Source of the DNA: Escherichia coli | GTDB lineage: Bacteria; Pseudomonadota; Gammaproteobacteria; Enterobacterales; Enterobacteriaceae | Reading direction: 5' to 3' (one strand) | NCBI RefSeq assembly: GCF_003334385.1 | Contig: NZ_QOWN01000026.1 | Length of the DNA stretch: 64,000 nucleotides | Part shown: one piece after another, positions 2,929-45,858 of the stretch | How positions within the stretch are numbered: position 1 is the stretch's first letter | How the letters are laid out: each line of letters begins with the position of its first letter | Position numbers and translations under genes: made by a program | The notes under the pieces: model-generated | The model's database searches: none | Told to the model about the DNA's origin: nothing | Seen by the model: the letters and a program-made list of their open reading frames with translations, nothing else

Positions 2929-3905
2929 AACCAGTCCACTTCATCCTTATGTTCTTCGAAATCGGCGCGCATCACCTCAATCAGCTCCACCATATCTTGT
3001 GGAATAGGCGCATGCCATTCCATTTCGATGCCGGAGATCGGGTGATAAAGACGCAGCATGGTTGCATGTAGCGCCTGGCGGTCAAACTTACGCAGCGTGG
3101 AGATAAATGCTTCCGAAGCACCTTTTGGCGGACGCGGACGGCCACCATAAACCGGATCGCCCACCAGCGGATGAGTGATATGGGCCATATGCACGCGGAT
3201 CTGGTGCGTACGTCCAGTTTCCAGACGCAACCGCAGACGCGTGTGCACACGGAAGTGTTCCATGATGCGATAGTGAGTCACCGCTGGTTTGCCCATCGGA
3301 TGCACCGCCATATGGGTACGTTTGGTCGGGTGGCGACTGATTGGCTCGTCCACCGTGCCACCTGCGGTCATATGACCAATCGCCACCGCTTCATACTCAC
3401 GAGTAATTTCACGCCGTTGCAAAGATTCGACTAAACGCGTCTGAGCCGGAACGGTTTTTGCCACAACCATCAGGCCAGTGGTGTCTTTATCCAGACGATG
3501 GACGATGCCCGCACGCGGTACATCGGCAATGGGTGGATAGTAATGAAGCAACGCATTCAGTACCGTGCCATCCGGGTTACCCGCGCCAGGATGTACCACC
3601 AGGTCGCGCGGTTTATTAATGATAATAATGTCTTCATCTTCATAGACGATATCCAGCGGGATATCCTGCGGTTCAAAACGCGCTTCTTCTTCAATCTCAG
3701 CGTTGATGGCAACCTGCTCGCCACCCAATACTTTTTCTTTCGGCTTATCACAAACTTTGCCGTTAACCAGCACTCGCTGGTCGAGGATCCATTCTTTTAT
3801 TCGCGAACGTGAATAATCCGGGAACATTTCGGCCAAAGCCTGATCTAAGCGTTGACCGAGTTGGTTTTCGGACACCGTTGCAGTGAGCTGTACTCGTTGT
3901 GCCAT
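2925..3905 (-). CDS. rluD: 23S rRNA pseudouridine synthase RluD
   Basis: 326-aa ORF with N-terminal S4-like region and a pseudouridine synthase core (HRLDKDTTGLMVVAK). Confidence 0.92.
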   Translation of the reverse strand: MAQRVQLTATVSENQLGQRLDQALAEMFPDYSRSRIKEWILDQRVLVNGKVCDKPKEKVLGGEQVAINAEIEEEARFEPQDIPLDIVYEDEDIIIINKPRDLVVHPGAGNPDGTVLNALLHYYPPIADVPRAGIVHRLDKDTTGLMVVAKTVPAQTRLVESLQRREITREYEAVAIGHMTAGGTVDEPISRHPTKRTHMAVHPMGKPAVTHYRIMEHFRVHTRLRLRLETGRTHQIRVHMAHITHPLVGDPVYGGRPRPPKGASEAFISTLRKFDRQALHATMLRLYHPISGIEMEWHAPIPQDMVELIEVMRADFEEHKDEVDWL

Positions 3906-4039
3906 ATATACTGCTTCTTCGTTTATCGTTGGGGTTTTACGGCTTTGCCGTTTAATATAGTGTGCTATTGTAGCTGGTCTTAACCGGGAGCAGGAACAGA
4001 GAATCTCCCGTATTACATTTTGAGGAAAGTCAAAACGTC

Positions 4040-4777
4040 ATGACGCGCATGAAATATCTGGTGGCAGCCGCCACACTAAGCCTGTTTTTGGCGGGTTGCT
4101 CGGGGTCAAAGGAAGAAGTACCTGATAATCCGCCAAATGAAATTTACGCGACTGCACAACAAAAGCTGCAGGACGGTAACTGGAGACAGGCAATAACGCA
4201 ACTGGAAGCGTTAGATAATCGCTATCCGTTTGGTCCGTATTCGCAGCAGGTGCAGCTGGATCTCATCTACGCCTACTATAAAAACGCCGATTTGCCGTTA
4301 GCACAGGCTGCCATCGATCGTTTTATTCGCCTTAACCCGACCCATCCGAATATCGATTATGTCATGTACATGCGTGGCCTGACCAATATGGCGCTGGATG
4401 ACAGTGCGCTGCAAGGGTTCTTTGGCGTCGATCGTAGCGATCGCGATCCTCAACATGCACGAGCTGCGTTTAGTGACTTTTCCAAACTGGTGCGCGGCTA
4501 TCCGAACAGTCAGTACACCACCGATGCCACCAAACGTCTGGTATTCCTGAAAGATCGTCTGGCGAAATATGAATACTCCGTGGCCGAGTACTATACAGAA
4601 CGTGGCGCATGGGTTGCCGTCGTTAACCGCGTAGAAGGCATGTTGCGCGACTACCCGGATACCCAGGCTACGCGTGATGCGCTGCCGCTGATGGAAAATG
4701 CATACCGTCAGATGCAGATGAATGCGCAAGCTGAAAAAGTAGCGAAAATCATCGCCGCAAACAGCAGCAATACATAA
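4040..4777 (+). CDS. bamD: Outer-membrane assembly lipoprotein BamD (YfiO)
   Basis: 245-aa ORF with lipoprotein signal (LFLAGC lipobox) and TPR-like repeats; divergent from rluD. Confidence 0.92.
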
Positions 4778-43954: not shown

Positions 43955-44359
43955 TTAGATCAGGAAATCGTCGAGAGATTTACCTTCTGCCAGCGCCTGA
44001 GCAATTGGCTTCGGTGTACGGCCCTGACCGGTCCAGGTTTTAGTTTCACCGTTAACATCGGTGAATTTATATTTCGCCGGACGCGGCTGGCGTTTTTTAC
44101 CAGCGCGTGGTGCAGCAGCAGAGCTATTACCCAATAACTCTTCCGGGTTAATTCCGTCAGCTTTCATCAGCTCCAGCCAGGTGCTAATTTTTTCCTGGCG
44201 CTCTGCCAGTTCACGCTGCTGCTGTTCTTCTTCTTCACGTCTTTCTTTAGTGACAACCCTGAATTTTTCGAGCATTTCTTCAAGAACGTCAATGGAGAAT
44301 TCGCGAGCCATCGCACGGAGGGTGCGAATGTTATTTAAACTTTGTAACATTACGGACAT
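43955..44359 (-). CDS. stpA: H-NS paralogue StpA
   Basis: 134-aa [36 protein letters not shown]... ending [14 protein letters not shown]. Confidence 0.96.
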
Positions 44360-45027
44360 AATAAAGAAAACCTTTTAACGCCAAAACAAAAAAAGTATTT
44401 CGTCGCGTAGTGTAAGCGATCACTTATTATATTTCCACAAAATTTAATCTATTTACAGTCCTGCGCGAGATTATTTCAGCTGTTATTTTCTGAAACTCTC
44501 AGAATAATTTCAAGATTATATATTAGCCATTTTGATGAGTAATTTAGATTATTGGTGAACAGAGCGGCGCTCTCTGCTCGCTAATTCCGCAAGCCTGACA
44601 AAATCAAAGTGAATAAAAATGCAATATAACAGAATAAAAGAAAACATCCATCACTGGTGCTTTCTGCTGTTAATGTACATTGTCTGGCATAAAAAATGCT
44701 GAAAATGACCCAGCTACTACATACACCGAATTCTCTACGCTTATAGCGTTACCTCACCCCCAAACTTTCATTAGTGATATTAAAGGTAAGGCCATATCTA
44801 ATTGATTTAATTAAAAATAAATCATATCGGCATGTAAAAATCCACAATGTACAAAAAACGAGCCGTTACGGAATATTTTATCTACAAAAACTGACTAAAT
44901 AAAAATTTTTCACTAATTGATTAGTCATAGCCAGCGATATACGCTATGCGAAAATGCAGATGGCAATGAGATCCACTGCTTTCATCTCCATTAACATCCC
45001 ATTACGCTTTTATTAAGGAGCATTAGC

Positions 45028-45477
45028 ATGTTCTCACCGCAGTCACGCTTGCGTCATGCAGTTGCAGATACGTTCGCGATGGTTGTTTACTGTTCTGTCG
45101 TGAACATGTGTATTGAAGTTTTCCTCTCCGGAATGAGCTTCGAACAGTCTTTTTATTCCAGATTGGTAGCGATTCCGGTGAACATCTTAATTGCATGGCC
45201 ATACGGTATGTACCGTGATCTGTTTATGCGCGCGGCACGCAAAGTTAACCCGTCGGGCTGGATAAAAAATCTGGCGGATATCCTGGCTTATGTGACGTTC
45301 CAGTCACCGGTGTATGTGGCGATCTTGTTAGTGGTGGGCGCAGACTGGCATCAGATTATGGCGGCGGTCAGTTCAAACATCGTTGTTTCGATGTTGATGG
45401 GGGCGGTTTATGGCTACTTCCTCGATTATTGCCGCCGACTGTTTAAAGTCAGCCGTTACCAGCAGGTAAAAGCCTGA
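45028..45477 (+). CDS. alaE: L-alanine exporter AlaE (YgaW)
   Basis: 149-aa membrane ORF. Confidence 0.88.
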
Positions 45478-45513
45478 CTCTTCTTTTCGCGACTGGCATC
45501 GCCAGTCGCGTCT

Positions 45514-45858
45514 TTAACTGGCTTCGCCAAATAAACCATTCAAATAACGTTCAAGCGCAACACGCGAACTAAAGCCATGCGGGATACCGTAATGCTCGTG
45601 TCGCTCGCCTGCTAAATAGAGCGGAAATTGCTGGTAATGATCGCAAGTTTTAATATCGGAAGCGGGTTCAGCCAGTGTCGAACTGCGTTCTTTTAATGTT
45701 GGATGAATTACCAGAGCGGTACGTCCCATTCGCGCTTCGCGATTAACATAGACATAATTTTCCCCACGGCGGTAACCATACGCTTTCTGGGTTACCACAT
45801 CGACAGTAAAACCGACTTTTTCAAGTACGCGCGCCACCTCGTCTGGTCGTAAATACAT
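45514..45858 (-). CDS. ygaC: Uncharacterized protein YgaC
   Basis: 114-aa ORF convergent with alaE. Confidence 0.85.

Follow-up and report, generated by a model that had tools for sequence, protein, structure and literature searches.

The long AT-rich spacer between stpA and alaE of Escherichia coli is very probably a shared control region of two divergent genes

Why do the divergent genes stpA and alaE of E. coli lie so far apart, and what does the DNA between them do? The product of stpA is a paralogue of H-NS and the product of alaE is the L-alanine exporter. In the stretch of DNA analysed here (64,000 nucleotides; hereafter, the window), the gap between their divergent start codons, as read from the list of open reading frames (ORFs), extends from 44360 to 45027 and is 668 bp long. 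The original prediction described it as an unusually long, AT-rich gap between these two genes with no ORF of at least 60 amino acids on either strand, and this description is accurate. The coordinates are exact. The GC content of the spacer is 33.8%, as against 49.6% for the whole window, and only 2.3% of 668-bp windows within the 64 kb are equally AT-rich. Its length is unusual locally: among the gaps between intact protein-coding genes in a 40.7-kb annotated neighbourhood it ranks first, followed by the nrdF-proV gap (353 bp). The longest ORF fully internal to the spacer has 42 amino acids. Two further ORFs only overlap its margins, one antisense to stpA (44061-44378, plus strand, 105 amino acids) and the other antisense to alaE (45023-45202, minus strand, 59 amino acids). 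The lack of long ORFs is uninformative in itself, since 75% of composition-matched shuffles also contain no ORF of at least 60 amino acids (mean longest ORF, 52 amino acids) and the spacer is thus within chance. Elsewhere in the window, at approximately 29700-34800, several 668-bp stretches (28.6-35.8% GC) match or exceed the spacer in AT-richness; judged by position, they match the ypjA / ypjCB pseudogene / tRNA-Ile neighbourhood of an annotated relative.

The spacer is identical at 668 of 668 positions to nucleotides 2,798,496-2,799,163 of E. coli MG1655 (NC_000913.3), so that a window coordinate equals the NC_000913.3 coordinate minus 2,754,136. The MG1655 record has no annotated feature within this interval. 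The AlaE protein of the window differs from that of MG1655 at one residue only, residue 74 (45247-45249; N74 in the window, S74 in MG1655), so the window derives from a strain closely related to K-12 and not from the MG1655 reference itself. In Table 1, we list the features of the spacer and of its borders.

Table 1. Positions of features in and around the stpA-alaE spacer (window coordinates)
Feature	Position	Strand	Basis or remarks
stpA coding sequence (left boundary)	43955-44359	-	ORF list; annotated as stpA in MG1655 and in strain CY708
stpA 5' UTR, 42 nt	44360-44401	-	Start at 44401 (G, minus strand), SMRT-Cappable-seq (PMC6131387)
stpA core promoter	44409-44437	-	-35 TGGAAA (44432-44437), 17 bp, -10 TACACT (44409-44414)
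Variable AT-rich centre, ~370 bp	44461-44834		Between the mapped starts
Weak terminator-like hairpin and T-run	44698-44714	-	Consensus scan; -6.4 kcal/mol, z = -2.0
alaE upstream control block	44790-44949	+	Ungapped; conserved in 59 species
Probable alaE core promoter	-35 TTGATT 44917-22; -10 TACGCT 44940-45 or TATACG 44938-43	+	Placed from the published start
alaE 5' UTR, 78 nt	44950-45027	+	Start at 44950 (G); Shine-Dalgarno AAGGAG at 45015-45020
20-codon upstream ORF	44954-45016	+	Stop overlaps the alaE Shine-Dalgarno sequence; unsupported as a gene
alaE coding sequence (right boundary)	45028-45477	+	ORF list and MG1655 annotation
ygaC	45514-45858	-	Read-through region to stpA, 44360-45514

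We consider it very probable that the 668 bp constitute a shared AT-rich control region of stpA and alaE, with promoters at both ends, and a platform for H-NS and Lrp. Published experiments supply the protein binding, the DNA bridging, the effects on regulation and both transcription starts. In genomic SELEX, both RpoD holoenzyme and H-NS bind the spacer (Shimada et al. 2014, PMC3946193). H-NS silences stpA, and Lrp activates stpA and is needed for its expression in minimal medium (PMC4668568). Lrp together with alanine or leucine activates alaE, according to the part of PMC6801825 that cites Ihara 2017. Matches to the Lrp and H-NS consensus sequences in the spacer are no more frequent than in composition-matched shuffles, so these binding claims rest on the published experiments and not on motifs. 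The original prediction of a large control region bound by H-NS and StpA therefore stands in respect of H-NS (SELEX and silencing), and is widened by Lrp and RpoD. Its StpA part does not stand in the same way: direct StpA-binding data (ChIP) for the spacer were not found in the literature examined.

The most detailed evidence concerns Lrp. The stpA-alaE region was the model in a study of DNA bridging by Lrp, which used lacZ reporters, qRT-PCR, ChIP-seq and atomic force microscopy (AFM) (PMC10127797). Lrp gives a double ChIP-seq peak, with one peak in the stpA-alaE spacer and the other inside ygaP (Ziegler et al. 2023, PMC10127797), and removal of the ygaP peak lowers the Lrp-dependent activation of stpA more than 5-fold. 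By AFM, Lrp bridges the stpA-alaE fragment, and the bridge is abolished by leucine. A PalaE-lacZ fusion shows slight repression in minimal medium and strong activation once leucine, isoleucine and valine (LIV) are supplied. With in vivo occupancy and Lrp-dependent expression both on record (PMC10127797), the spacer qualifies as an Lrp-regulated operator.

These observations suggest a simple scheme. The AT-rich DNA would be a platform for H-NS, and presumably StpA, to silence stpA, and Lrp oligomers would use it too. In minimal medium, the Lrp on the spacer would bridge to the ygaP Lrp site more than 1 kb away, and stpA would be activated. Leucine would break the bridge, and the Lrp remaining on the alaE operator would then activate alaE.

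Are the promoters themselves visible? The stpA transcript was mapped from 2,798,537 to 2,798,047 (window 44401 to 43911) in both the M9 and the rich-medium lists of SMRT-Cappable-seq (PMC6131387), and its 3' end is confirmed by Term-seq at 2,798,048 (PMC7815308). The alaE transcript runs from 2,799,086 to 2,799,651 (window 44950 to 45515; SMRT-Cappable-seq, PMC6131387). The two starts, at 44401 on the minus strand and 44950 on the plus strand, are separated by 548 bp; with conserved and plausible hexamers upstream, they make the spacer a divergent promoter region. The DNA next to both promoters is under purifying selection. Identity to other Escherichia species is 92-97% in the stpA-proximal block (44360-44460) and 88-89% in the alaE-proximal block, as compared with 66-73% at the four-fold sites of the flanking genes, which we take as neutral. 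From these comparisons we infer a pattern of constraint in three parts, two conserved ends and a variable centre, in which the centre probably has no sequence-specific function beyond that of AT-rich DNA of suitable length.

The first part (approximately 100 bp) would consist of a sigma-70-type stpA promoter of the form TGGAAA-17-TACACT followed by the short stpA leader. Both hexamers were read from the sequence relative to the published start, and their assignment is our inference. Over 59 species, the best-kept columns of this promoter are CTGGAAAT and the TA...T of the -10 element. A perfect TATAAT lies on the minus strand at 44426-44431, inside the spacer between the -35 and -10 elements; Escherichia, Salmonella and some Citrobacter share it (GGAAATATAAT). 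Judged by its sequence, it could be a second stpA promoter with a predicted start near 44419. The published start tables examined contain no start near that position.

The part next to alaE (approximately 240 bp) would comprise conserved A/T-rich operator motifs, phased and spread between approximately -230 and -80, a TTGATT-17-TACGCT promoter and the 78-nt leader that ends in AAGGAG. The conserved motifs of this block include AAATAAAAAT (44897-906), CTAnTTG and CAGnnnnATAnnCTA, which stand at a constant distance from the alaE ATG in 43-50 of 53 species outside Escherichia. Most species in which alaE has no adjacent stpA have these motifs as well, which indicates that the control block belongs to alaE. 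Two sites resembling the Lrp consensus, with 3 mismatches each, are found at 44883-97 and 44932-46. A published ChIP-seq peak of sigma-S RNA polymerase, reported as alaE, covers approximately 44942-45091 when converted from an older coordinate system. In strain 2017-02-1CC of E. coli, an IS1 (2035-2801 of the locus) is inserted at 44885-44893 with a 9-bp target duplication; it lies within the conserved control block, and 57-65 bp separate it from the alaE transcription start downstream.

The leader of alaE was examined for regulatory RNA structure. The GGAG of its Shine-Dalgarno sequence is invariant in 59 species, and 5 nearly invariant pairs join the Shine-Dalgarno sequence with the start region, with one-sided G-C/G-U changes only. 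Apart from this 5-bp pairing, RNAalifold on 23 species gives no conserved structure and no covariation (consensus -2.97 kcal/mol). We rejected a riboswitch or attenuator in this leader, given that it contains neither a covarying structure nor a conserved leader peptide. The leader does contain a 20-codon upstream ORF (Table 1). The E. coli strains, Escherichia sp. MOD1-EC7003 (the closest relative of E. coli) and E. albertii have it in full. In three further Escherichia lineages only 5 codons are left of it, and the other genera shown lack its ATG. Of its 20 residues, 9 differ between E. coli and E. albertii (counted by eye). The ORF begins 4 nucleotides from the 5' end of the mRNA and is not preceded by a Shine-Dalgarno sequence. 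Just within the start of alaE there is a weak PhoB ChIP site (AGTCACGCTTGCGTCATG, 45038-45055, centre 2,799,166; PMC10294691); the same study lists it as intragenic and finds many such sites to be transcriptionally inert.

How old is this arrangement? The spacer occurs once per genome in 5,420 of 5,426 complete E. coli genomes. In a scan with one genome per species we found alaE in 80 loci, and in 58 of them stpA lies divergently upstream, across a spacer of 475-789 bp with 31-43% GC. The lengths fall in discrete classes across genera. The occurrence of a long AT-rich spacer in 58 other species points to an ancestral feature of the Enterobacteriaceae. This distribution bears on one alternative, namely that H-NS simply silences what is left of horizontally acquired or mobile DNA, or of a decayed gene. 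Low GC content and H-NS binding speak for this reading, and two strains do carry IS1 elements inserted in the spacer. A remnant, however, would hardly be kept as a single copy in nearly all E. coli genomes, at the same position and between the same flanking genes in species of many genera. Moreover, no repeat family was detected, the sequence being confined to one site per genome, the orthologous spacers share no ORF remnant, and conserved native promoters stand at both ends. We therefore give this reading next to no chance, and retain that of a native control region. In the second of the two strains, E. coli QL57EC, the IS1 (3343-4110 of the locus) replaces 44702-45168; the associated deletion takes away the alaE promoter together with codons 1-47.

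The middle part (approximately 370 bp) behaves in a very different manner from the two ends. Its identity to other Escherichia species is 53-57%, as against 66-73% at four-fold sites; it is rich in insertions and deletions, and it cannot be aligned in other genera. Among E. coli strains its identity is 93-96%, the same as at the four-fold sites of the flanking genes (93-96%). Because divergence within E. coli equals that of synonymous sites, the fast divergence of the centre is not evidence for diversifying selection. In the proposed control region, this AT-rich DNA would drift in a roughly neutral manner and contain no mapped RNA start. A small GC-rich patch is found at approximately 44555-44600.

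The centre is not entirely featureless within Escherichia. Short invariant islands are present (for example ATTATTTC at 44470-77, ATGCTGAA at 44696-703 and ATTCTCTAC at 44730-38), and six Escherichia lineages have whole spacers of 661-669 bp, with 1-4 gap columns in each pairwise alignment. As far as alignments can tell, the islands and the near-constant length suggest some constraint beyond our main model. It is tempting to hypothesize that the centre acts in Escherichia as a scaffold of fixed length and fixed phase, independent of its sequence, for a bridged complex of Lrp and H-NS through which stpA and alaE are coupled; we regard this as unlikely. If true, selection would act on spacing and not on sequence. 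As a full alternative, the centre might be an architectural scaffold whose length and phased islands are selected for H-NS/Lrp bridging while the rest is free to change. The length of the spacer does hold in the six lineages despite a divergence of approximately 45% in the centre, the islands remain in register, conservation over 44460-44955 is periodic at approximately 35.5 bp, barely attaining the 95th percentile when compared with a block-shuffle null, and Lrp bridging on stpA-alaE DNA is published (PMC10127797). Yet this periodicity is a marginal one that loses significance when the spacer is taken as a whole, the length varies across genera (475-789 bp), and the islands are absent outside Escherichia. 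The centre also diverges exactly like synonymous sites within E. coli, and the constancy of length comes from six lineages only, with no calibrated expectation for the ratio of indels to substitutions. Altogether we find this alternative very unlikely, and we keep to a centre that is mostly plain AT-rich DNA within a shared control region.

Could the spacer instead hide a gene? The original prediction held that it could host an unannotated small RNA or small protein, and proposed a covariance-model scan and the mapping of transcription starts as checks. There are several reasons to look. The spacer is long, and it includes several ORFs of 15-27 codons that begin with ATG. Start codons at 44619, 44696, 44847 and 44954 recur in most, or in all, of nine other Escherichia sequences. 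On the minus strand, 100-nt windows have fold z-scores as low as -2.6 and -2.95, and a weak terminator-like hairpin can be drawn at 44714-44698.

For a small RNA, none of the lines of evidence that we followed is favourable. At a permissive E-value, the Rfam covariance models give nothing above threshold in the window (the best score is 18 bits, with a gathering score of 53), and eight orthologous loci give no match at the gathering score. Fold z-scores over 68 overlapping 100-nt windows on both strands have a mean of -0.75 and a minimum of -2.95, with nothing notable among them, and the windows with the lowest values come from the non-conserved centre. Nor does anything stand out when the GC-rich patch, the terminator-like hairpin and the two leaders are folded individually. 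The hairpin is probably not functional: its stem is not kept in other Escherichia species (alignment read by eye), and no Term-seq 3' end maps to it. A consensus scan for promoters and terminators missed both real promoters, and its hits are near chance. In published transcript maps, which represent few growth conditions, the only starts within the spacer in the SMRT-Cappable-seq lists are those of stpA and alaE, with no other internal coordinate in the supplementary tables (PMC6131387). The Term-seq tables (PMC7815308) give 3' ends at 2,798,048 and 2,798,243 and then none until 2,800,533. In the literature we found nothing relevant on a small RNA linked to stpA, ygaW or alaE. With no extra start and no internal 3' end in these maps, no Rfam family and only one weak and non-conserved hairpin, a small RNA gene was rejected as a candidate.

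For a small protein, we compared 16 internal ORFs of at least 12 amino acids with nine Escherichia sequences (four E. coli strains and five other lineages). Every one of the 16 is truncated, extended or without a start in at least one of the nine. As examples, an ORF of 27 amino acids is cut to 7 in O157:H7 and to 2 in MOD1-EC7003, and an ORF of 15 amino acids varies from 15 to 27 among the Escherichia sequences compared. By eye, no Shine-Dalgarno sequence precedes any of the small internal ORFs, and a conserved one is seen only at alaE. The longest ORFs across 59 orthologous spacers look mutually unrelated and chance-like. The ribosome-profiling supplement of small ORFs from Stringer et al. 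2021 has no entry for the gene names of the locus or for the coordinate prefixes tried. Among the matches listed (20 E. coli records), the only annotation under a spacer match is an IS1. A small protein gene was rejected as well, as no ORF is kept across the Escherichia sequences compared and none has, by eye, a Shine-Dalgarno sequence. Thus, the part of the original prediction that concerned a hidden gene finds no backing, and we judge a small RNA or small-protein gene in the spacer to be most improbable. The length of the gap needs no such gene, which makes the spacer a low priority for small RNA or small-protein discovery.

Longer transcripts may cross the spacer at times. In Supplementary Data 3 of the SMRT-Cappable-seq study, the stpA operon is extended to b2671|b2669 (ygaC and stpA; PMC6131387). 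Such a co-transcript would imply occasional read-through on the minus strand across the whole spacer, antisense to alaE. The start assigned to ygaC, 2,800,694 (window 46558, PMC6131387), would give a leader of approximately 700 nucleotides antisense to ygaM. Between the convergent genes alaE and ygaC lies a 36-bp gap (45478-45513) with a GC-rich hairpin, GCGACTGGC-ATC-GCCAGTCGC, and the mapped end of the alaE transcript (45515) is just beyond it. On the minus strand no U-run comes after this hairpin, a possible reason for the read-through from ygaC.

How does the locus compare with known systems? With respect to the stpA-alaE (ygaW) region of E. coli K-12 (PMC10127797, PMC3946193), we find no difference: the sequence, the promoters, the occupancy by H-NS and Lrp and the bridging to ygaP are the same. 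The spacer is an ordinary divergent control region that has already been characterised. The K-12 region is reportedly also described by Free & Dorman 1997 and by Ihara et al. 2017. Like fadR-ycgB-dadAX, ilvIH and the pap pili switch, the stpA-alaE region has multiple A/T-rich Lrp sites spread over hundreds of base pairs, with cooperative binding of oligomers or bridging and with modulation by leucine or alanine. Unlike those systems, the region has one Lrp platform for two divergent genes that respond to leucine in opposite directions, its matches to the Lrp consensus are weak, and the literature examined gives no footprinted individual sites. The promoter regions of proV, bgl and hns also resemble it in their low GC content, in H-NS binding over the promoter, and in the relief of silencing by environmental signals or competing regulators. 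In contrast to them, the stpA-alaE spacer is ancestral core-genome DNA that was not horizontally acquired, and the silenced gene, stpA, encodes the paralogue of H-NS itself.

What our analysis adds to the earlier descriptions is the comparative dissection of the spacer into three parts and the negative evidence on hidden genes. On the reading that we favour, stpA-alaE would exemplify the control of a divergent gene pair by the nucleoid-associated proteins H-NS, StpA and Lrp through a long AT-rich spacer.
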